Source of the DNA: Pseudomonadales bacterium
GTDB lineage: Bacteria; Patescibacteriota; Microgenomatia; UBA1400; PJMF01
Assembly: GCA_020632255.1 (NCBI GenBank)
Contig: JACKFX010000001.1
Span: 58,734 to 122,733, forward strand
DNA length: 64,000 bases
Direction of reading: 5' to 3'
The first letter of the stretch is position 1; each line of letters opens with the position of its first letter. Positions 8,786-60,072 of the stretch are shown here, one piece after another. A program made the translations under genes and the position numbers. Below the pieces are notes generated by a model that did not search any database, had not been told where the DNA came from, and saw nothing but the letters and a program-made list of their open reading frames with translations.

Positions 8786-8983
8786 GTGCCAATAGGAGGA
8801 AAAGAACGACTTCATGCCCAACGGCTTGACATGTACGGGCGATTGTGTACAGAGTGGCTAATTAAGAAAGTCACAGATGATAGAGCTGAGGCAGCAGCAA
8901 AAGCAGCAGCAGAAGCAGCAGAAGCAGCACAAGCAGCACAAGCAGCACAAACAGACAAAGACCAAGGTGAATCACAGAGATAA
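8786..8983 (+). CDS. possible small protein with an Ala/Glu/Gln low-complexity tail (GTG start); doubtful
   Basis: The ORF rides on a gcagca/gaagca simple-sequence tract (8883-8945). A possible promoter TTGCCA…TATACT lies at ~8714-8745. Confidence 0.15.
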   Translation: MPIGGKERLHAQRLDMYGRLCTEWLIKKVTDDRAEAAAKAAAEAAEAAQAAQAAQTDKDQGESQR

Positions 8984-15118: not shown

Positions 15119-15391
15119 TATCAATAAAAGTTATCTTGTAGGTCAACTGAAACTTCTCGGACTTTGCCCTGCGAGGCTTTCGGCAGCGAACCAAGAATTA
15201 GACTCCAATAGCTAACTCATTTAATAAAAAAACCAGCCTGAGGCTGGATTTTTTGTATGTGGGGAAAGAACTCTGACACGGAACTCCCCTATTCCTTAAG
15301 TATGAACTTGGTTTTTTCTTATTACAACTTAGACATGATGCTGTTGAGGTGGAAAAATAGGTGGGTTGGCTAGAACTGTTATAATGAAACT
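15119..15391 (+). repeat. cassette-boundary unit K0 (diverged tRNA-Lys 3' copy ggtcaactgaaact + module B + terminator + promoter segment)
   Basis: Shares ttatcttgt.ggtcaactg, module B, a terminator hairpin and the acacggaactcccct…gtatgaac…ggtgga…ctgttataat segment with K1/K2 and with Pro-array unit P5. Confidence 0.6.
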
Positions 15392-16266: not shown

Positions 16267-16283
16267 AATATATTGATAAATCA

Positions 16284-16586
16284 ATGTAATTTATCTTGTG
16301 GGTCAACTGGGACTGCTCGCTTGCTGTGCAAGCTGTGCGATGCTTGTACTGTTTGTGGCTATACAATTACTACTCGCATGGCGAACCAAGGGTTTGATTC
16401 CAACAATTATCCCAGCATATAAAAAAACTAGCATGATGCTAGTTTTTTTATATGTGTGACACGAACTCTGATACGGAACTCCCCTCTTTCTCAAGTATGA
16501 ACCTAGTTTTTTCTTATTATGATTTGGATATTAGGTTGTTGCGGTGGAAGAATCGGTGGGTCAGATAGTGCTGTTATAATCTAGTT
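16284..16586 (+). repeat. cassette-boundary unit K1 (exact 16-nt tRNA-Lys 3' copy tgggtcaactgggact + module A + terminator + extended -10 promoter)
   Basis: About 99% identical to K2 over ~270 bp. Terminator aaaaaaactagcatgatgctagttttttt. TGtTATAAT at 16572-16580, 6 nt before the ATG at 16587. Confidence 0.7.
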
Positions 16587-17373: not shown

Positions 17374-17646
17374 AAAGTCGTCTTGTGGGTCAACTGGGAC
17401 TGCTCGCTTGCTGTGCAAGCTGTGCGATGCTTGTACTGTTTGTGGCTATACAATTACTACTCGCATGGCGAACCAAGGGTTTGATTCCAACAATTATCCC
17501 AGCATATAAAAAAACTAGCATGATGCTAGTTTTTTTATATGTGTGACACGAACTCTGATACGGAACTCCCCTCTTTCTCAAGTATGAACCTAGTTTTTTC
17601 TTTTTATGATTTGGATATTAGGTTGTTGCGGTGGAGGAATCGGTGG
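17374..17646 (+). repeat. cassette-boundary unit K2
   Basis: Near-identical to K1 (exact tRNA-Lys 3' copy at 17386-17401, module A, terminator, promoter segment). Confidence 0.7.
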
Positions 17647-18618: not shown

Positions 18619-18791
18619 CAATCTAAGTTTTCTTGTGGGTCAACTGGGACTGCTCGCTTGCTGTGCAAGCTGTGCGATGCTTGTACTGTTTGTGGCTATA
18701 CAATTACTACTCGCATGGCGAACCAAGGGTTTGATTCCAACAATTATCCCAGCATATAAAAAAACTAGCATGATGCTAGTTTTTTTATATG
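18619..18791 (+). repeat. cassette-boundary unit K3, directly abutting tRNA-Lys
   Basis: Exact tRNA-Lys 3' copy at 18636-18651, module A and terminator. The promoter segment is replaced by the tRNA itself. Confidence 0.7.
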
Positions 18792-18865
18792 TGGGTCAAC
18801 TGGGACTCGAACCCAGGACACCCTGCTTAAGAGGCAGGTGCTCTAACCGACTGAGCTATTGACCC
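18792..18865 (-). tRNA. tRNA-Lys(CTT)
   Basis: Acceptor GGGTCAA/TTGACCC, D-arm GCTCAGTCGGTTAGAGC, anticodon loop CTCTTAA, T-arm CTGGGTTCGAGTCCCAG. Confidence 0.85.
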
Positions 18866-26784: not shown

Positions 26785-26917
26785 GTAGTAATCCCGATAT
26801 ATGTATTAATCATTGAGTAATTACTCTCATTGTACATGAAATGTTGATTTTTTTGAAAGAATTGCCATAACATTGCTCACTAGCAGGTATGTTTTATTCG
26901 GTGACTTTTTTTTATGT

Positions 26918-26943
26918 ATGACACTGTTGGACTATGTTGGAAC
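26918..26943 (+). repeat. boundary motif copy (atgacaCTGTTGGACTATGTTGGAAC)
   Basis: Exact core ctgttggactatgttggaac. Confidence 0.6.
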
Positions 26944-27229
26944 TTCACTCTTTGAATATTCAGGTGAAAACCAAAATCTAAGTTCTGTCTTTGAAGAACA
27001 AAAAAATCTGGAACACCAGTGTCATCTATGTTTACAGAATTATTGAGATAAATATTTGAATAACCAAAAGATACTTTTTTCTTTTTAATAAGGAAGCCAT
27101 CTTCTGACTCAAAGTTGCATTAGAAGTATTCTTTACTTCTGAATTACAAGCACATTAAAATATATATTTAGGTCTAGACCCCAACCTTTTCCTTTGTTTT
27201 TTCTTGAGTAATCTGTAATAATACTATTT

Positions 27230-28516
27230 ATGATTGGTAATAATGGAGAAACTACTAGTACAGGTATAAAGGAAAGAAAAACTGAAATTCAGGATGATCT
27301 TTTGAAAGAACCGACCGACCCCGTTGTCTACTTTAGGAGCATGTTTGAGGATGAGCTTAACATTGAGCGTCAAAATGTAAAGGAAATGATATTGGCTGCG
27401 GACTCGATTGATAAAAAAATAAACCTCTTACGATCATGGCGAAAAAGATATGCGAATATTTCGCAGGTTACTGAAAATGTTGAAGATGATCCTACAATTT
27501 TAAATTTTTCCTTGTCACAGTACTCTGAATATATTCCATTTTATGAAGTCATTGAAAAAAAATATCCTTGGATTTCAGCTTTAGAAAAACAAGATAGGAT
27601 TCACCTAATGGATAGGCTGATAGAATCATTTTTAGCGAGTGGGAAGTTTTCAGAAAATTTTTTATCACAAATTCCTCTCCTTTTCAAAAAGTATAAATCA
27701 CTTAAAAGGAGATTAGATGTAATTGATGCAAACCCCAGTTTAGGTGATTCTGAGGCGAGAAAATTAAAAGCTCTAGCTAGATATGAAGAATTTTCGTATG
27801 GAGGAAGAAGTGTTTTTGATATAGCAAGATCTAATTATGATGCGGTAAATCTTTTATTAAATAGTGGAATTTTACAAAGATCTGAATTGGGAAGATTATT
27901 GTTAAATCGCATACCAAATCTTGAAATGTATGCTAGTCATTTTAGTAACCGTTGGGGGTATAAATATATTTTAAAAACAGGAGAGCTAACTTGTGCTGCA
28001 GAACTACAAGAAAACCCAAATATCCCTTTTAAAAAGTTTACTTGGGTGAGTGATGCTGCTTTGAGGAATGATAGTATGTGCTTTTTTTGTCTCGGAAGCC
28101 ATGATTCACGTGACTACGGATCCAGAAATGACTCTAGAAATGGCACACCATTTTATTTGGATATTGGCAATAACCCAGGCTTGTTAAATGGAGCTTTAGT
28201 TAGAGTTCACATAACTCAATTTGATAGTAATGAGAATATTTTACCAACTGAAGCGGAGCAAATGAGTTTAGATTCAGAACTATATCCAGCAACAAATTAC
28301 AAAGAAATATTAATCTTTCAGTTATACAGAAAGTTTATTGGGAATGAAGACATGACTTCTTATGAAGAGTTAATTTTCAGGTTGAAAAATGATAATGATG
28401 AAGAGTTGTTACGTTACATAGATGACAACCAAGATGATTTGGGTGTATATCTAGAAATAATTGTTCCATCGCATGTAAAATTGTGGGATTTGATTGTTGG
28501 CAGTCCAGTGAAATGA
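27230..28516 (+). CDS. hypothetical protein (428 aa)
   Basis: Long ORF with no recognisable motifs. Confidence 0.45.
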   Translation: MIGNNGETTSTGIKERKTEIQDDLLKEPTDPVVYFRSMFEDELNIERQNVKEMILAADSIDKKINLLRSWRKRYANISQVTENVEDDPTILNFSLSQYSEYIPFYEVIEKKYPWISALEKQDRIHLMDRLIESFLASGKFSENFLSQIPLLFKKYKSLKRRLDVIDANPSLGDSEARKLKALARYEEFSYGGRSVFDIARSNYDAVNLLLNSGILQRSELGRLLLNRIPNLEMYASHFSNRWGYKYILKTGELTCAAELQENPNIPFKKFTWVSDAALRNDSMCFFCLGSHDSRDYGSRNDSRNGTPFYLDIGNNPGLLNGALVRVHITQFDSNENILPTEAEQMSLDSELYPATNYKEILIFQLYRKFIGNEDMTSYEELIFRLKNDNDEELLRYIDDNQDDLGVYLEIIVPSHVKLWDLIVGSPVK

Positions 28517-28533
28517 TTTATTCCTCATTTGTG

Positions 28534-28548
28534 TGATGCCCGAGTTGG
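28534..28548 (+). repeat. copy of the tRNA-Gln 3' end (tgatgcccgaGttgg, 1 mismatch)
   Basis: Matches the reverse complement of the tRNA-Gln 3' terminus at 32498-32512. Confidence 0.6.
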
Positions 28549-28742
28549 TCCTCAGCCTTTGCTCTGGACATTTCCTCGCAGAAGTTCAATCAGATTCGCG
28601 ATTCGCTACTATTTACATCTAATTAAGGAAGTCACATGCACTAAGCAGGAAGTTCGCAGGTGCTCACTTCTTGCTGGCGCGACGGGTTCAAATCAATACT
28701 GACAGCCACAAAAAAAGATAGCATGCTGCTATCTTTTTTCAT

Positions 28743-28770
28743 GGATGGATCTATTGGACTATGTTGGAAC
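28743..28770 (+). repeat. boundary motif copy (ggatggatctattggactatgttggaac), preceded by terminator hairpin 28713-28740
   Basis: Core matches 18/20. Hairpin aaaaaaagatagcatgctgctatctttttt is upstream. Confidence 0.6.
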
Positions 28771-28789
28771 CATTCTACTGATGTAATTG

Positions 28790-29161
28790 TCACTCTGTTT
28801 TAGCGAGAAGTGTATATCTATTGTGTCCATCCTCATCAAACTTTTTTGCTTTTGTTTGTGCAACCAATTTTTCCCAAACAATTTGTGCTTCAGGTGAAAG
28901 ATTTGTGCCAGAGTACAATGGAAACCCATACTTCTGTAGAGCGACTTGGTTCATTAGGTATAGTCTCCTCGTGGCAAGATTTCTTTTTATATGGTTTGCG
29001 TCAGTCCATGTCCAGTCGACAAAAGGCTTGTTTCGAAAATATTTTTGAGTTTCTGGGTTATTTGAATTTACATTGAATCGTAATGTCGAACATCCAATAA
29101 TATTGTCATTTTCTATGTCAACAAAGTATGTTAGCTCATCTTCATCTCCAGTGTCATACAT
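28790..29161 (-). CDS. hypothetical protein (123 aa)
   Basis: ORF only. Confidence 0.4.
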   Translation of the reverse strand: MYDTGDEDELTYFVDIENDNIIGCSTLRFNVNSNNPETQKYFRNKPFVDWTWTDANHIKRNLATRRLYLMNQVALQKYGFPLYSGTNLSPEAQIVWEKLVAQTKAKKFDEDGHNRYTLLAKTE

Positions 29162-29414
29162 TTTTATTTGTCTAGCTAAATATGTCTCTGTTCCGTCTGG
29201 ATGATGGTATAACTGGAACTCTTCAAAGTTGCCAGTTTTATAATCATCTGGATGTACTAGTGAAGCACTTTTTTTTCGAAGTGTTGCATTACATGCTGAG
29301 GAACATCTGCAGGTGTGATCTGTATAGGTACAAAAGATCTGGATTCTAAAATGTACCTTGGTGCTTCAGTCATGTTCAAAGTATATAGTAAGATATATAG
29401 TTCTATCAACAAGT

Positions 29415-29440
29415 GATTGCTCTGTTGGACTATGTTGGAA
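29415..29440 (+). repeat. boundary motif copy (gattgctctgttggactatgttggaa)
   Basis: Exact core. Confidence 0.6.
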
Positions 29441-29467
29441 GTAATCTTTCAGCTTTTCAGAAGTCTT

Positions 29468-29938
29468 TCACTCAGGAATTTTCATTTCCATAGTTGTGAA
29501 CTTAATTCCATTTACTTCTTTTTCATCTGAAACACTTTTAAAACCCAATGCTTCATAGGCTGTAACTGAATTTGGTGAAGAGTGAACGGTAATCATCTTT
29601 ACGGAAGAATTGTTTTGCTTAATTAATTTTATTGCTTGTACAAGTAATTGTCGTCCAATTCCTCGCTTTTGGTGTTGGGGATCTACGAAAAGCATTGAAA
29701 GATGATTATTTGATCTTATTTCAATAATACCCACTAATTTTTTGTCAATTTCTGCTTTCAATATCCAATGATCTTTTTGCAGTTGTTCTTCAATTGCTTT
29801 AGGAGTTATATATTTATAAAATTCTTCATTCCCTTGGTCAGAATAAAAATTTGCAACAGAACTATCAAAAACCATTTTTATAAATTGCGATAATTTAGTT
29901 GATTCAGATAAAACTGCCTTCGATATTTTCATATACAA
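29468..29938 (-). CDS. GNAT family N-acetyltransferase
   Basis: QHQKRGIGRQLLVQAI motif A. Confidence 0.65.
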   Translation of the reverse strand: MYMKISKAVLSESTKLSQFIKMVFDSSVANFYSDQGNEEFYKYITPKAIEEQLQKDHWILKAEIDKKLVGIIEIRSNNHLSMLFVDPQHQKRGIGRQLLVQAIKLIKQNNSSVKMITVHSSPNSVTAYEALGFKSVSDEKEVNGIKFTTMEMKIPE

Positions 29939-30042
29939 AAATTATATCAGGTTAGAACTTAATCCAGAAGAGAATTTGAGGTGTACTAATGAGGTATAAA
30001 ACCACGAGAAGAATTAGATTGATATATAAAGCTATATTTTCA

Positions 30043-30071
30043 GGGATGGCACTGTTGGACTATGTTGGAAC
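30043..30071 (+). repeat. boundary motif copy (gggatggcactgttggactatgttggaac)
   Basis: Exact 28-mer consensus. Confidence 0.6.
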
Positions 30072-30113
30072 TAATTTAATGTTTAATACAAATTCAAGTG
30101 ATATACTTCAGAT

Positions 30114-30842
30114 ATGTCAAAAATCATACTCAAAAAATATGGAAGTGGGAACACAGTTCTTGTAGCATTTCCTGGCTGGACACACCCAATTGAAAATGAA
30201 AAAGAATTTCTCAATTTATTAAGTAAAAAGTATACTGTTTACTCAGTCTGTTTACCTGGGTATGTTAAAAATAAAAACTCAAATAAATTTAATGATTTTA
30301 AAAACCTTGTTAGTGACATAGATAAAGAAATTAAAAAGATTAAAAGTAAAAACATTGTGTATATTGGTTTTTCAATGGGATGTAGACTAATTATGGAATT
30401 AGAAAACAAATATCCAAATAAATATAAAAAAATATTTGTTGGTACTCCTGTTCACAACTATAGAATACCACTATGGGCAAATTTGCTATTACTTAATTCA
30501 AATATTATTAATATTTTAAGAAAATCAAAATCATTCAAACTATTTATTGTTAACAAAGCTCTTAAAAATATATTAAATGATAATAAAGCAGTATTTAATA
30601 AAAATAGGAATGTCACTCTAACTGGTGCATTTGATTCTTTAATTGGCTTAATAAAAAGCGACAATACTTTCATAAAATATAAAAAAACAACTAATTTTAT
30701 TTATGGAAATAATGACAAATACTTATATGAAGCAAAAAAATATAATTTAAAAAGTTTATATATCATTGAAAACGCAGACCACAACTGTGTAAGAAATCAT
30801 GAGGAAGAGGTTGTAAGAATAATTGATAGGCTTGTTAATTAA
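30114..30842 (+). CDS. alpha/beta hydrolase-like protein, strongly AT-rich (GFSMGC nucleophile elbow)
   Basis: GxSxG motif and C-terminal DH. Composition is markedly lower-GC than the surroundings. A diverged 5' fragment of a homolog lies at 49288-49383. Confidence 0.5.
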   Translation: MSKIILKKYGSGNTVLVAFPGWTHPIENEKEFLNLLSKKYTVYSVCLPGYVKNKNSNKFNDFKNLVSDIDKEIKKIKSKNIVYIGFSMGCRLIMELENKYPNKYKKIFVGTPVHNYRIPLWANLLLLNSNIINILRKSKSFKLFIVNKALKNILNDNKAVFNKNRNVTLTGAFDSLIGLIKSDNTFIKYKKTTNFIYGNNDKYLYEAKKYNLKSLYIIENADHNCVRNHEEEVVRIIDRLVN

Positions 30843-30887
30843 AAATAATAGTTTAATTAAGATATGATATATAAAGCTATATTTCAT

Positions 30888-30905
30888 TGATGCCCGACTT
30901 GGATT
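30888..30905 (+). repeat. exact 18-nt copy of the tRNA-Gln 3' end (tgatgcccgacttggatt) followed by a conserved module
   Basis: Identical to 32498-32515. Followed by ...ggctcgcgcaggtgcgctcgtgagcccgtcgcgaac. Confidence 0.65.
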
Positions 30906-31056
30906 CACGATTCGCTGCTATTTGTATCTACTGTAGGAAGCTCATATGCACTAGGGTGGCTCGCGCAGGTGCGCTCGTGAGCCCGTCGCGAACGATTTCA
31001 AATAAAATTCTGGAACATATACAAAAAAAACAAGCGGATGCTTGTTTCTTTTGTAT

Positions 31057-31083
31057 GATGGCTCTGTTAGACTATGTTGGAAC
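31057..31083 (+). repeat. boundary motif copy (gatggctctgttagactatgttggaac), overlaps the last 3 codons of the LMW-PTP gene, preceded by terminator 31026-31050
   Basis: Core 19/20. Confidence 0.6.
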
Positions 31084-31500
31084 TTCTCTACCTGCAATCT
31101 CTGATAACAATAGTTCTATTTCATCTCTAACTTGTCTGACACCATCCATGGAACTTTCATATGGATCAGGAACCCCTTTATAAAGTATGTTCAAGCCACT
31201 TGAAACAATAAAGTCAGGTAAAATGCTTGGATCACAGAGAACAATTATTGTAGTTATATCCCGAAGCATTTCTTGAACTAAAACTTTTATTTTTTGCTCA
31301 GAAATATCGATGCCTTTTTCAAACATTGCTTGAATAATATCTTCTCTTGGATGAAAATTATATTTTTCCCTATAGTCATTAATCCCAGCACTTTTTGCAG
31401 AATCTTCACCAAACCAATGTTTCCAAAAACCTTCTGCCATTTGGCTTCGACCAACGTTGCCCTCACAAACAAAAAGAACTTGTTCATTTTCAATTTTCAT
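31072..31500 (-). CDS. low-molecular-weight protein-tyrosine phosphatase / ArsC-like (CX5R P-loop VLFVCEGNVGRSQMAEG)
   Basis: C-E-G-N-V-G-R-S P-loop signature. Confidence 0.6.
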   Translation of the reverse strand: MKIENEQVLFVCEGNVGRSQMAEGFWKHWFGEDSAKSAGINDYREKYNFHPREDIIQAMFEKGIDISEQKIKVLVQEMLRDITTIIVLCDPSILPDFIVSSGLNILYKGVPDPYESSMDGVRQVRDEIELLLSEIAGREVPT

Positions 31501-31580
31501 AGGGATATTGTATCAGAGAAAATCAGACGAGGAGTTCTAACCGTACTAACGAGGTCAAAATTTTCTTGAGGGAAAAACGT

Positions 31581-31608
31581 GGATGGCACTGTTGGACTAT
31601 GTTGGAAC
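31581..31608 (+). repeat. boundary motif copy (ggatggcactgttggactatgttggaac)
   Basis: Exact 28-mer consensus. Confidence 0.6.
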
Positions 31609-31725
31609 TGGGCTTAGAAAAAACGGAGCTATTTATTAGCAAGATTTCTTATATGCATTCATAGAATGAACTAGAACTTATTTCTTAAAAATTACGACAA
31701 TTCTATCAAAATATCTTTCAAAAGC

Positions 31726-32390: not shown

Positions 32391-32499
32391 TGTAAATTAT
32401 ATCAGGTTAGAACTGTCGCTCGAAGGGAAATTAAGGTGTACTAATGTGGTAGAAAGCATAAAGAGATTTAGATTGATATATAAAGATATATTTTAAGTG

Positions 32500-32570
32500 A
32501 TGCCCGACTTGGATTCGAACCAAGATTGACGGCTTCAAAGGCCGCTGTCCTGCCATTAGACGATCGGGCA
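32500..32570 (-). tRNA. tRNA-Gln(TTG)
   Basis: U1:A72 acceptor TGCCCGA/TCGGGCA, anticodon stem gcggc/gccgt with loop CTTTGAA, T-arm CTTGGTTCGAATCCAAG. Confidence 0.85.
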
Positions 32571-53386: not shown

Positions 53387-54343
53387 TTAATCTGGTGCTT
53401 TTAAAATAGCAACGCATGCATCATCATATTTTGAATGTTGTGATAAGGTTGACATTATGTTTTGAGCTCTCTGAATAAGAGCTTTTGCTAGCATTCTTAA
53501 ATTACTTCTTTTGGAAGATCTGTCATAGCTCTTTTGATACTCTTCCGTTATCGCTACAGGTAATCCTGATGGGGATATATTATCAGGAATACCGTCAGAC
53601 ATTGCAAAATAAATATCGCCTGCTTGCAGTGGTATAACTAAAATATCTATATCTTTTGGAGCGTTAAGACTACCAACGGATTTGTAAATTTGATTTCTAT
53701 GGGGATGTTGATGAGCTTCCTGAATTGTAATTACGCCTGCGGCAAGAAGAGCTCCAACTAAGCTATGGTCTTTGGTTAATTGTATAAGGACTGCAGTTTC
53801 AGGATTATACTTATATATTCTACTGTCACCCACATGAGCAACTACCAAAAATCTATTTTTACCATCGGGACTGGCACAGACAATTCCTGCGCTGACAGTG
53901 GTATCAAGTTCGTCATTACCAGTTTCAGTCTGAAGGGATTTTATTTGATTTCTTGCTTTGAAGATGGCGTTTTTTAATTCTACGATTGCTTGGCTAATTG
54001 TTGGAGTTTTCTCAAATTTATCTAAACCCATTAGTTGAATTAGAACGAATTGAGCTGCTCTTGCAGAGTCCTTTCCACCCGAACCGACGCCGTCCATTGC
54101 TGCAATAATTCCACTTTTACCTCCAGCAATTTGTTTTGCTAAAGCTCTATCAGCAGAATAATCTGGGTGGCGAGGATTAGCCGCAACAGTTGAAGCTACC
54201 TCAATATTAGTTGAAGCTAACTCAATATTAGTTGATGCTACCTCATTATTAGTTGATGCTACCTCATTATCAATTGAAGCTACCTCAGTTTGGGGAGGTA
54301 CTAAATCTTTAGGTTGTATAAATCTGCTATCATCTTCAGACAC
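53387..54343 (-). CDS. PP2C-family Ser/Thr phosphatase with an N-terminal (E/D)(V/L)ASTN(I/N) heptad tandem repeat
   Basis: AAMDGVGSGG, VGDSRIY, LTKDHS, SDGI PP2C motifs. Five 21-bp tandem repeats at the 5' end. Confidence 0.65.
   Translation of the reverse strand: MSEDDSRFIQPKDLVPPQTEVASIDNEVASTNNEVASTNIELASTNIEVASTVAANPRHPDYSADRALAKQIAGGKSGIIAAMDGVGSGGKDSARAAQFVLIQLMGLDKFEKTPTISQAIVELKNAIFKARNQIKSLQTETGNDELDTTVSAGIVCASPDGKNRFLVVAHVGDSRIYKYNPETAVLIQLTKDHSLVGALLAAGVITIQEAHQHPHRNQIYKSVGSLNAPKDIDILVIPLQAGDIYFAMSDGIPDNISPSGLPVAITEEYQKSYDRSSKRSNLRMLAKALIQRAQNIMSTLSQHSKYDDACVAILKAPD
54189..54293 (-). repeat. 5 × 21-bp in-frame tandem repeat inside the PP2C gene 5' region
   Basis: Units read gttgaagctacctcaatatta / gttgaagctaactcaatatta / gttgatgctacctcattatta / gttgatgctacctcattatca / attgaagctacctcagtttgg. 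Confidence 0.7.
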
Positions 54344-54577
54344 GCCTTAATGATATTAAATCATTAATTAATTGTCTATAGCCGTAATTTCTTTTTCACA
54401 GGTAATTTTGTTTGAATTTGTAACTTTATAAGGTTTATAACTGAATTAGTTTTTGTATTCTGATGGTTGGAAAATTTAGAGAATTAAGAAAATATATGTC
54501 ATCTTTAACTACGTAAGATTTACTGGGATTATTTAATAAGTACAAAAATGGCCCACTAATAGCTCTTTAATTGCAGT

Positions 54578-54730
54578 GTCTGGCAAACAGGACTGCTCGC
54601 TTGCTCTGCTAGCTGTGCGGTGCTCATACTGAATGAAAAAAAAGTTATTTTTCATCCGCATGGTTAACTAAAGTTTCACACCAAAGCTTCATCAACACAC
54701 AAAAAACCCACCCAAAAGGTGGATATTATC
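54578..54730 (+). repeat. Pro-array unit P0 (diverged att gtctggcaaacaggact + module A-like + terminator-like)
   Basis: Shares ggactgctcgcttgct…gctgtgcg…catggttaacta and caaagcttcatcaacacacaaaaaacccacc with P4/P5. Confidence 0.55.
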
Positions 54731-56404: not shown

Positions 56405-56550
56405 GTCGGGGAGACAGGATTTCTCGCTAGCTTCGTTCACTTCAGATGCTCGTACTGCATAAGGCTAACGCAATTTGTAACTTGCATAGCGAACCAAAGA
56501 CTCAGCACTTTGCTTACTCCAATAAATGAAAAATAGCAGCCTGTTCAATT
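56405..56550 (+). repeat. Pro-array unit P1 (att gtcggggagacaggat + diverged module ending gcatagcgaaccaaag)
   Basis: Sequence similarity to P3/P4. Confidence 0.55.
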
Positions 56551-57580: not shown

Positions 57581-57643
57581 TAATCTGATTATAGCAGCAA
57601 TGGAGAAGTTGAATATTTACTAAACTTGAATTAACTAGTATGT

Positions 57644-57687
57644 GTCGGAGTTGTGGAACGGTTTAATGACTCAGTTCTAGATCAAGA
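57644..57687 (+). repeat. unit P2' (gtcggagttgtggaacggtttaatgactcagttctagatcaaga); second copy at 58243-58286
   Basis: Two ~85%-identical copies, each containing the hairpin ggaacggtttaat.actcagttcc. Confidence 0.5.
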
Positions 57688-58015: not shown

Positions 58016-58083
58016 GGAGTAGATTATATCAGAGAAAAGTTAATGAAATTGTTTGCTTTTACACTAATAATTGATATAGAACT

Positions 58084-58292
58084 GTCGGGGAAACAGGACT
58101 CTTCCCTCGCTCCGCTCAGTCCAGGGTGCTCAGATCTTTTTATGGAATAGTTATTTTATTTCGCACAGCGAACCAAAGCTTCATTCTATGGTTCACCCAA
58201 TAAACCAAAAAAACAGACTAAAAAGTCTGTTTCTCTGTTTTGTCGGAATTATGGAACGGTTTAATAACTCAGTTCCAGATCAAGAAACCTAT
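58084..58292 (+). repeat. Pro-array unit P3 (exact att gtcggggaaacaggact + module + terminator aaaaaaacagactaaaaagtctgttt + P2'-like element)
   Basis: Exact 17-nt tRNA-Pro 3' copy at 58084-58100. Confidence 0.6.
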
Positions 58293-59333: not shown

Positions 59334-59397
59334 ATACCTCTTGAGTATAGCAGAGAGACAAGAAGTGTGTTTACTTTAGAAATAATTGTTGGTACAT

Positions 59398-59557
59398 GTC
59401 GGGGAAACAGGACTGCTCGCTTGCTTTGCAAGCTGCGCGATGCTCGTACTTGATGAGGTTGACACGATTTATAACTCGCATGGCGAACCATAGGTCTAGC
59501 CCATTGCTTGCCCCAATAAACCAAAAAAACAGACTAAAGAGTCTGTTTTTCTGCTTT
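59398..59557 (+). repeat. Pro-array unit P4 (exact att + module A: gctcgcttgctttgcaagctgcgcgatgctcgtact…actcgcatggcgaaccatagg + terminator)
   Basis: Module A is about 90% identical to module A of the tRNA-Lys array units. Confidence 0.65.
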
Positions 59558-59678
59558 GTCGGGGAAACAGGACTTCTCGGGCTGCGCCCTGCGAGGCCTT
59601 CGGCAGCGAACCAAAGCTTGACTCCAAAGCTTCATCAACACACAAAAAAACCCACCTAAAGGTGGGTTTTTTTATGTG
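59558..59678 (+). repeat. Pro-array unit P5 (exact att + module B: tctcgggctgcgccctgcgaggccttcggcagcgaaccaaag + terminator), abuts tRNA-Pro
   Basis: Module B matches module B of Lys-array unit K0 (15146-15210). Confidence 0.65.
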
Positions 59679-59752
59679 TCGGGGAAACAGGACTCGAACC
59701 TGCGACCTCACGGTCCCAAACCGCGCACTCTAGCCATCTGAGCTATTCCCCG
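59679..59752 (-). tRNA. tRNA-Pro(TGG)
   Basis: Acceptor CGGGGAA/TTCCCCG, anticodon stem cgcgg/ccgtg with loop TTTGGGA, T-arm GCAGGTTCGAGTCCTGT. Confidence 0.85.
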
Positions 59753-59987: not shown

Positions 59988-60072
59988 TGCCGCGGGTGGG
60001 AATCGAACCCACACGATATTGCTACCACGAGATTTTAAGTCTCGCGCGTCTACCAATTCCGCCACCGCGGCC
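59988..60072 (-). tRNA. tRNA-Leu(TAA)
   Basis: Acceptor GCCGCGG/CCGCGGC, D-arm GCGGAATTGGTAGACGC, anticodon loop CTTAAAA, long variable arm, T-arm GTGGGTTCGATTCCCAC. Confidence 0.85.

Follow-up and report, generated by a model that had tools for sequence, protein, structure and literature searches.

Integron arrays are composed of single-gene cassettes separated by repeats of ~60-140 nt with palindromic stems, and in chromosomal integrons these repeats are highly similar to one another. Cis-mobilizable elements (CIMEs) and accretion arrays (e.g., ICESt1/ICESt3 of Streptococcus thermophilus) consist of att-flanked, non-autonomous elements without a recombinase, stacked in tandem at one site and presumably moved in trans, and attachment sites of the lambda attP type have P and P' arms with arm-type integrase sites as well as IHF and Xis sites. 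The subject here is a 64,000-nt stretch of Patescibacteria DNA (GenBank assembly GCA_020632255.1, contig JACKFX010000001.1, positions 58,734 to 122,733; hereafter the window), in which four tRNA genes (Leu, Lys, Gln, and Pro) each anchor an array of short cassettes of accessory genes. At the cassette junctions of two of these islands stands a real and conserved non-coding block, termed module A, next to a 17-nt copy of the tRNA 3' end (c17), and we give somewhat better than even chances to the reading that module A is the conserved arm of a composite attachment-type site (module A, c17, and a promoter-bearing flank) of integrase-less mini-cassettes. In the tycheposon model from Prochlorococcus, tRNA-proximal islands grow by serial integration, with tRNA-Pro(tgg) among the anchors; partial tRNA copies lie between successive insertions, the newest insertion lies by the tRNA, and older degenerate copies are distal (bioRxiv 10.1101/2020.12.28.424599).

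The arrangement in the window resembles tycheposon-type growth and CIME accretion, and loosely integron arrays, but differs from each. Like tycheposon islands, the window arrays are found at specific tRNAs and contain partial tRNA copies that are degenerate distally; unlike tycheposons, their units measure 0.5-2 kb and hold one or two genes without integrase, replication, or packaging genes, most junctions carry the ~105-nt module and a terminator, and the host belongs to the Woesebacteria. No helicase/primase replication module of the tycheposon kind was seen among the open reading frames (ORFs) scanned. As in CIMEs, the cassettes are att-flanked, lack a recombinase, are tandemly stacked, and are presumably moved in trans, but CIMEs are kilobase-scale conjugative remnants at a protein gene, whereas the window units are tiny expression cassettes at several tRNA genes. 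The likeness to lambda attP lies in a short core with ~30-110 bp of conserved non-coding flank on each side that travels with the element independently of cargo; the differences are that the tyrosine recombinase of the window (270 aa) is without an arm-binding domain and that no repeated arm-type motif was established in module A. Integrons share with the window arrays the small cassettes, the stem-bearing repeats, the dominance of accessory cargo, and the frequent absence of a recombinase. However, the Lys and Pro arrays have no intI/attI/Pc platform beside them, their core derives from a tRNA 3' end and is not GTTRRRY, and the window cassettes have promoter-like sites and terminators of their own. 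No description of such arrays was found in the literature on Patescibacteria or the candidate phyla radiation.

The window comes from a Candidatus Woesebacteria (Patescibacteria) genome: contigs of GCA_020429005.1 encode proteins identical to ORFs of the window, which the sources name Woesebacteria. Ten tRNA genes and a truncated tRNA-Leu at the window start were called by ARAGORN and Rfam. Each integrase-less cassette is 0.5-2 kb long and comprises its own promoter, one or two accessory genes, and a terminator. Cargo includes GNAT acetyltransferases, a glyoxalase/bleomycin-resistance protein, alpha/beta hydrolases, an EamA transporter, DUF218, an ADP-ribosyltransferase, and an HNH nuclease; the cargo genes of the Lys array occupy the + strand, those of the Pro array the - strand. 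The islands and their anchors are:

1-5775: tRNA-Leu island.
18791-18865, - strand: tRNA-Lys(ctt) (ARAGORN, Rfam), anchor of the Lys array (~14.7-18.8 kb).
32499-32570: tRNA-Gln(ttg), with its array at ~26.9-32.5 kb.
59678-59752, - strand: tRNA-Pro(tgg) (ARAGORN, Rfam), anchor of the second module A array (~54.5-59.7 kb).

An earlier reading made from the sequence only (hereafter the sequence-only reading) had drawn attention to a module of ~100 nt at 16312-16420 in the Lys array. The sequence quoted there reads as described, with the hairpin gcttgc-tgt-gcaagc at 16319-16333 and gcatggcgaaccaagggtttgattcc at 16376-16401. The parts of this junction are:

16269-16296: X flank, a conserved ATTGATAAATCAAT-type palindrome plus TCTTG on the far side of c17 (repeat family D1).
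16297-16313: c17 (TGTGGGTCAACTGGGAC), matching the reverse complement of the tRNA-Lys 3' end at 17/17 positions; putative crossover core.
16314-16419, written on the + strand and antisense to the tRNA: the studied long copy of module A (covariance model 91 bits, E 9e-27), with stem P1 at ~16316-16339, stem P2 at ~16341-16382, and the invariant GCGAACCAA at 16381-16389.
16421-16452: hairpin bordered by an A run and a T run on its two sides (aaaaaaactagcatgatgctagttttttt); the identical sequence follows the real tRNA-Lys.
16453-16586, + strand: partial core TATATGTG followed by module B (TGACACGAACTCTGATACGGAACTCCCC...GGTGGAAGAATCGGTGG...TATAAT), ending at the start of the cassette gene (families D1 and D3).

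Read on the + strand, antisense to the tRNA, the full order of a junction is X flank, c17, module A, terminator hairpin, a partial core of 4-9 nt, module B, and cargo; in tRNA sense, most junctions read terminator, A', c17, X'. The X flank of the Lys array holds a ATTGATATATCAAT-type palindrome, and that of the Pro array carries, in tRNA sense, a promoter-like TAAACA-N18-TATACT or TATAAT directed into the cargo. The hairpin at 16421-16452 may be a bidirectional terminator, though it falls below the criteria of the terminator scan. As the same hairpin follows the real tRNA, it is read as a terminator that the inserted DNA provides for the tRNA; in the terminator scan, the Pro-array terminators are better in tRNA sense.

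In nine of nine copies, module A is directly preceded by c17, a copy of the reverse-complemented tRNA 3' end. In alignment with the tRNA, c17 runs from the last 2 nt of the T loop through the 3' strands of the T stem and the acceptor stem to the discriminator and two further nucleotides, and the equivalent tRNA-Pro 17-mer stands ahead of every module copy in the Pro array. All nine copies share one orientation relative to the tRNA, regardless of the orientation of the cargo. The c17 copies match at 17/17 positions at tRNA-proximal junctions and at 13-14 positions at distal ones, a gradient that would fit growth at the tRNA end and decay with age. Two attributes of attachment sites were observed: the inserted DNA lies between direct repeats of the tRNA 3' end and has the intact tRNA on one side, and the sequence next to the core on the element side is conserved, does not depend on the cargo, and recurs in other genomes.

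A covariance model built from all module A variants and searched over the window recovers exactly nine copies, seven of the long type (~105 nt) and two of the short type (~70 nt, with GCCTTCGGC in place of the long second hairpin):

16314-16419, 17401-17506, and 18651-18756: long copies, Lys array.
54594-54700, 56421-56526, 58100-58205, and 59414-59520: long copies, Pro array.
15154-15224 (Lys array) and 59574-59643 (Pro array): short copies.

The core 20-mer occurs five times in the window against 0.00 expected, GCGAACCAW eight times against 0.53 expected and every time within a module, and the gapped module pattern five times against none expected. The sequence-only reading had placed the module in all arrays at about 90% conservation across three loci, which proved too generous on both counts. 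Module A is confined to the Lys and Pro arrays; the tRNA-Leu island (1-5775) and the tRNA-Gln array (26.9-32.6 kb) gave no covariance-model match at E<=1, and their junction sequences are unrelated to it. The distinct variants are 51-72% identical within the window and up to 84% identical with relatives. The three proximal long Lys copies are the same sequence over the module (100%), Lys and Pro copies share 51-69% identity, and the distinct Pro variants of the window share 58-72%. The long Lys copy (Lys2) is nearest to the copy of the fourth Pro junction (Pro4; 69%), the two being close over the first ~43 nt only, and the Lys array has probably acquired module A recently from the Pro type. 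Conservation falls in blocks (c17, the start of module A, GATGCTCGTA, and CGCAyrGCGAACCAwAG), and 25-30 nt inside P2 are free to vary. The heads and tails of the modules are also mosaic: the first Pro copy (Pro1) joins a long head to a tail and terminator of the short type (repeat family D12).

This pattern of identity bears on the possibility that the ~290-nt block (X flank, c17, module A, terminator, partial core, module B) is passive, with no sequence-specific role, its similarity having come from gene conversion or recent duplication; such a block would at most be portable homology for cassette swaps by homologous recombination after DNA uptake. The mosaic Pro1 is in keeping with this, as are the 97% identity of the whole block, beyond module A alone, between two Lys junctions (D1) and the equal covariance-model scores of the three proximal Lys modules. 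However, conservation between genomes with a flanking protein of 40-51% identity is patchy and not uniform, with invariant motifs beside free stretches; the distal c17 still matches at 17/17 positions while module A diverges; and reassortment between genomes takes place exactly at c17, which points to a site-specific joint. A passive block is unlikely.

The comparison with other genomes is based on a gapped pattern scan and on synteny-guided retrieval. In exact-word scans, the head of the long module was absent from viral, genome, and metagenome collections, and the short variant from the viral collection; known phage or plasmid attP sequences gave no blastn match to the module. The gapped pattern scans returned one real relative, a metagenome-assembled genome labelled 'uncultured Patescibacteria group bacterium' (locus L015), which holds a second, decayed copy. 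The other gapped-pattern matches, on two Bacteroidota contigs (L013 and L014) and in two high-GC coding sequences (L016 and L017), were set aside as chance. A c17 copy, module A, terminator, and tRNA-Pro occur in the same order and orientation in three other Patescibacteria genomes (L015, L018, and L019). The large protein beside tRNA-Pro/tRNA-Leu(taa) is 51% (L019) and 40% (L018) identical to that of the window, module A is 56-84% identical to the window copies in these two genomes, and each of them has a distal c17 of 17/17. Between the Pro4 unit of the window and the L018 unit, identity is 94% over the 33 nt on the X side of c17 but 56% over the A modules, and the cargo proteins of the two units are unrelated (E 9.8); the L018 module is instead 84% identical to that of the third Pro junction of the window (Pro3). 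The flanks of c17 therefore assort independently between genomes, and c17 behaves as a site-specific recombination joint. The single inserted unit of L018 ends distally in module B, the partial core TGTCGG, terminator T2, and a core gene, and this end looks like an attR with the native tRNA terminator.

A related layout was observed at tRNA-Gln of another relative (L008, 9040-9245; LytR-family protein 73% identical), where a copy of the tRNA-Gln 3' end is followed by an unrelated module of ~165 nt, a terminator, and then tRNA-Gln. The architecture of core copy, module, terminator, and tRNA is thus general, and the module sequence tRNA-specific.

Open frames run through c17 and module A at some junctions (e.g., a 49-codon Cys-rich frame in Lys2 at 16273-16422, + strand; 87 codons in Pro4 at 59396-59659, + strand; 74 codons in L015 at 5430-5654). 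A coding role was rejected: the frames differ among copies, Pro3 has stops, and the substitutions between Pro4 and L015 are mostly non-synonymous (~14 versus 5, hand count), so that the open frames are regarded as spurious.

The sequence-only reading offered a degenerate tRNA 3' half or a non-coding RNA as the nature of the module, and neither idea found support: there is no Rfam match, ARAGORN calls no tRNA in the window beyond the ten true ones, and folding is near that of shuffles. Searches with the 4227 models of Rfam 15, in permissive mode on short stretches, gave no tRNA, tmRNA, or other family on any module A copy on either strand at E<=10, and the only sub-threshold matches were chance ones to terminator hairpins. 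The resemblance of module plus att to a tRNA end holds for the 17-nt core, which is tRNA-identical; this core lies outside the module, and the identity stops there (TGTGGGTCAACTGGGAC/TGCTCG in the copy versus TCGAAC in the tRNA). The equivalent module of the Leu island, likened to the variable arm of tRNA-Leu, gains nothing from the tRNA model and has no Rfam match in permissive mode. Module A is neither a tRNA half nor a described RNA.

The most conserved motif of module A, GCGAACCAA, reads TTGGTTCGC in tRNA sense and holds the universal T-arm hexamer GGTTCG, 75-90 nt from c17. This hexamer is correctly oriented upstream of c17, which is itself tRNA sequence, and the tail of Pro4 (GGGGCAAGCAATGGGCTAGA) is loosely like the 5' acceptor and D arm of tRNA-Pro; all three would suit a decayed, functionless tRNA remnant, in which module A and c17 are a pseudo-tRNA or a 3' half interrupted in the T loop. 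Against these stand the absence of any match to the tRNA covariance model at E<=10, the lack of conservation of the D-arm-like stretch in L015, L019, and the second Pro copy (Pro2), and the flanks of the hexamer, which form no T stem with c17 in the Pro copies. Moreover, one type of module A serves two tRNAs and is kept across distant genomes, and a remnant of this kind is highly improbable.

Evidence on secondary structure is mixed. Compared with dinucleotide shuffles, the minimum free energy of ten copies was no better in 19 of 20 strand/copy folds (z -0.64 to +0.90 on the + strand and -1.5 to +0.4 on the - strand), the exception being the - strand (tRNA sense) of Lys2 (z -3.3), and the minimum-energy folds vary from copy to copy. 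RNAalifold, applied to eight long copies (five window variants plus L015, L018, and L019), keeps two short stems on either strand: P1 is a small hairpin immediately after c17, and P2, (A/G)TGC...GCA(T/C) with two inner pairs, closes the variable 25-30-nt loop. Pairing in these stems extends to 94-96% of cells, compared with 79-81% in column shuffles, and none of 500 shuffles reaches the observed value, for eight related sequences and a structure drawn from the same alignment; slid controls are 8-47% paired. Changes on both sides were observed in six of the 12 pairs, mostly in the Pro3/L018 lineage and in Pro1, and may represent two to four independent lineages. G-U pairs are biased toward the tRNA-sense strand in P1 but toward the other strand in P2, so that neither strand is preferred, and the pairing would fit DNA hairpins or palindromic protein sites just as well. 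A structured role for module A, as RNA or as folded DNA, is possible on the thin evidence of these two short covarying stems. Two further pairings were discarded: an acceptor-like stem from the module tail to c17, given by RNAalifold with five sequences, was gone with eight and failed the duplex-versus-shuffle test in eight of ten copies, and hand-drawn P1 registers (TCGC/GCGA and others) were inconsistent among copies, so that the RNAalifold pairs were counted instead.

If the stems act in RNA, module A could be a small RNA or a cis-acting element of an untranslated region (UTR) on either strand, e.g., in the 3' UTR before the Lys-array terminator. The stems pair above shuffles with half of their pairs changed on both sides, the terminator hairpin that follows module A looks bidirectional in the Lys array, and the Lys-array modules lie within the 3' UTR of + strand cargo genes. 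Such an RNA is nevertheless quite unlikely, as Rfam gives no match, the folds hardly depart from shuffles and differ among copies, the G-U bias is opposite in the two stems, and the double changes come from so few lineages. There is also no consistent promoter ahead of module A on either strand, promoter-like sites being no commoner than in shuffles; tRNA sense places module A past the terminator of the tRNA, in antisense the tandem Pro units lack the space for a promoter, and the relation of module A to cargo flips between arrays.

The same stems could alternatively serve in a folded, single-stranded recombination site similar to an integron attC, in which the hairpins of module A loop out and bring TTGGTTCGC beside ...AGTCC..., recreating a T-arm-like recombinase site. 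When joined to the (A)GTCC... of c17, TTGGTTCG(C) would mimic GGTTCGAGTCC in the tRNA gene, the stems are kept by pairing and not by sequence, and the module of the Leu island likewise has a pair of hairpins next to the core and is more stably folded than shuffles (z -1.9 and -2.5). However, the stems are short (4-6 bp), and complementarity between the module tail and c17 is significant in one of ten copies (Pro4, p 0.012) and marginal in Lys2 (p 0.066). No attC-type boxes (RYYYAAC...GTTRRRY) bound module A, each cassette has a promoter of its own, and an integron-type integrase was not seen; a folded site is very unlikely.

The reading of module A as the arm of a composite attachment-type site would work as follows. 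A tyrosine recombinase would cut within c17, and module A would supply the element-side recognition, as a half-site beside c17 (conserved CGAGNA next to GTCC). Alternatively or additionally, module A may hold sites for an accessory or bending protein, with the two small palindromic stems and the invariant TTGGTTCGC, which resembles the T-arm motif GGTTCG, as candidates. In tRNA sense, A' is on the side of c17 where a tRNA body would be, and X' is the short conserved flank that bears the cargo promoter in the Pro array. Cassettes have accumulated beside tRNA-Lys and tRNA-Pro, and the enzyme would come in trans, probably from the 270-aa family with a copy in the tRNA-Leu island. The proposal in the sequence-only reading that the modules are integrase arm sites and not products of decay is favored by the fixed orientation, the conservation in blocks, the presence next to tRNA-Pro in three other genomes, and the reassortment of flanks; the mechanism is what we infer from these.

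The recombinase in question is the only one among 50 ORFs scanned (Pfam):

234-1046, - strand: tyrosine recombinase of 270 aa with SAM-like N-terminal and catalytic domains.

Its gene directly follows the 'module plus core' of the Leu island, and the Leu element is flanked at both att-type ends by 64-nt 'module plus core' copies that are 100% identical (family D11). More than 7,500 homologues were found, the best 120 of which are 72-83% identical, are nearly all 270-271 aa long, and come from several Patescibacteria classes (Moranbacteria, Portnoybacteria, Gracilibacteria, Shapirobacteria, and others); this conservation is well above that of the housekeeping neighbors (40-73%). Sampled homologues (loci L021-L024) adjoin tRNA-Ser(gct) or tmRNA, with restriction-modification or defence cargo at two of the three loci examined. 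As the tRNA-identical block begins at the 3' edge of the T loop in four tRNA types (Lys, Pro, Leu, and, in L008, Gln), it is plausible that one recombinase family recognizes the generic T-loop region and acts in trans on several arrays. A bolder version, which we regard as speculative and unlikely, is that Patescibacteria have a tRNA-anchored, integron-like capture platform, in which the 270-aa recombinase acts in trans at the T-loop edge of many tRNA and tmRNA genes and mini-cassettes are recognized through a folded module A in the role of attC, its hairpins bringing the GGTTCG half-site beside the core.

The remaining junctions are:

15137-15256: distal Lys junction; c17 (13/17) 15137-15153, short module A 15154-15224, terminator stem 15233-15247.
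17384-17506: second Lys junction; c17 17384-17400, long module A 17401-17506, model score equal to the first and same sequence by eye.
18634-18789: tRNA-proximal Lys unit; c17 18634-18650, module A 18651-18756, terminator hairpin 18758-18789, abutting tRNA-Lys.
54577-54727: distal Pro junction 1; c17 (13/17) 54577-54593, long head with T1-type tail 54594-54700, terminator.
56405-56526: Pro junction 2; degenerate c17 56405-56420, long module A 56421-56526.
57643-57687: solitary B-type junction; TGTCGG partial core and Pro-type module B (D17), without module A or terminator.
58083-58285: Pro junction 3; c17 58083-58099, divergent long module A 58100-58205, T2 58206-58237, and, at 58241-58285, partial core TGTCGG then Pro-type module B (families D14 and D17).
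59334-59396, - strand: X' flank of Pro junction 4, with promoter-like TAAACA-N18-TATACT toward the cargo in tRNA sense.
59397-59553: Pro junction 4; c17 TGTCGGGGAAACAGGAC 59397-59413, long module A 59414-59520, terminator T2 59522-59553.
59557-59676: tRNA-proximal Pro unit; c17 59557-59573, short module A 59574-59643, abutting tRNA-Pro.
~59645-59676: terminator-like hairpin T1, read from the sequence and absent from the terminator scan list.

Units of terminator, module A, and c17 can exist without cargo, as in the two that stand in tandem at 59397-59676. The unit adjacent to the tRNA is always ordered tRNA, terminator, module A, c17 (Lys, and Pro in four genomes), and the same order is found with other modules at Leu and, in the relative L008, at Gln.

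Several observations weigh against the composite attachment-site reading. The tRNA-adjacent unit begins with terminator and module A and never with the X flank, which simple serial integration at c17 does not predict. An alternative grammar, with the crossover in the last 4-6 nt and each element starting with terminator, A', and c17, fits equally well and would make module A internal to the element; both this grammar and a crossover anywhere in c17 would place module A in the conserved end region of the mobile unit. The ORFs scanned in the Lys and Pro arrays and their surroundings include no recombinase, so that action in trans is assumed. The 270-aa enzyme has no separate arm-binding domain, the feature that calls for long arms in lambda-type systems, and an arm of ~100 nt is therefore not obviously required. 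The compensatory changes in the two stems would be unusual for a duplex site bound purely by protein, and no excision product or empty site was observed. The sequence-only reading had named absence of the modules from related genomes as evidence that would count against it; at tRNA-Pro, the module is present in three such genomes, but at tRNA-Lys the relative L012 has cargo genes between tRNA-Arg and tRNA-Lys with neither a c17 copy nor module A, so that the Lys array with module A is lineage-restricted.

Patescibacteria have tiny genomes, and their gain and loss of accessory genes are poorly understood. The window demonstrates that at least four tRNA genes each seed an array of very small, self-contained cassettes, with a junction grammar defined for two of them, and the arrays are linked to a recombinase family unusually conserved across Patescibacteria. 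Should module A be needed for cassette movement, it would belong to a small, defined recombination system, and the covariance model would be a handle for finding arrays in fragmented metagenome bins; should it not be needed, the module would be the conserved end of a family of miniature integrative elements. Broken short-read contigs of the window organism and a relative (the ends of L004, L006, L007, L008, and L009, and the end of L001) stop inside tRNA-Lys or the repeated junction block, indicating that the arrays break up metagenome assemblies and that bins will under-represent them. A circle-like Logan contig (L002) was assembled from one cassette and was rejected as an excised circle because a de Bruijn assembler yields such a contig for a unit between near-identical repeats.

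The tRNA-Leu island contains a further repeat of ~167 nt, which lies downstream of the recombinase gene and ahead of four cassette genes (1141-1307, 2039-2205, 3133-3299, and 4134-4300). Three copies are 92-100% identical, and the first has the left half only. The repeat folds at -52.5 kcal/mol versus -33.4 kcal/mol in shuffles (z -5.2) into a three-way junction, and its inverted pair GTTAGGC...GCCTAAC corresponds to the integron R-box consensus GTTRRRY/RYYYAAC in reversed order. It has no Rfam match and no copy in the other loci or viral contigs, and it is a better candidate for a structured element than module A. At the end of contig L021 (6840-7188), after a recombinase homologue, tandem non-coding units of ~190 nt include a stretch like a tRNA 5' half (GTGGTGTAGTTAAGCGGATAGAACA) and repeated AGGTTCT motifs, with no tRNA called.

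Other tRNA-like stretches and repeats were observed in and around the arrays. The 3' part of the Lys-type module B (GTTGCGGTGGAAGAATCGGTGG; 16536-16575, 17623-17646, and 15341-15380) looks like the 5' acceptor and D arm of a class II tRNA, differing from tRNA-Leu(taa) (60050-60066) at three of 17 positions, and a similar stretch occurs at 6280-6310 of L012, the relative without module A. The junctions of the tRNA-Gln array (six copies, 26909-31618) consist of a terminator, GATGGCACTGTTGGA, and CTATGTTGGAAC; in most copies the core-like 15-mer has the same four mismatches to the 3' end of the resident tRNA-Gln (GATGCCCGACTTGGA), which suggests that the Gln cassettes came from a host with a different tRNA-Gln allele. 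A stretch of ~120 nt downstream of tRNA-Gln is duplicated at 29939-30059 (D13 and D15). Two tandem repeats are unrelated to the arrays, namely a AGCAGCAAA-type repeat of 9/12/18 nt just before tRNA-Gly (8891-8959) and 4.8 copies of a 21-nt unit (91% matches; 54188-54287) in a PP2C-like gene (53387-54343).

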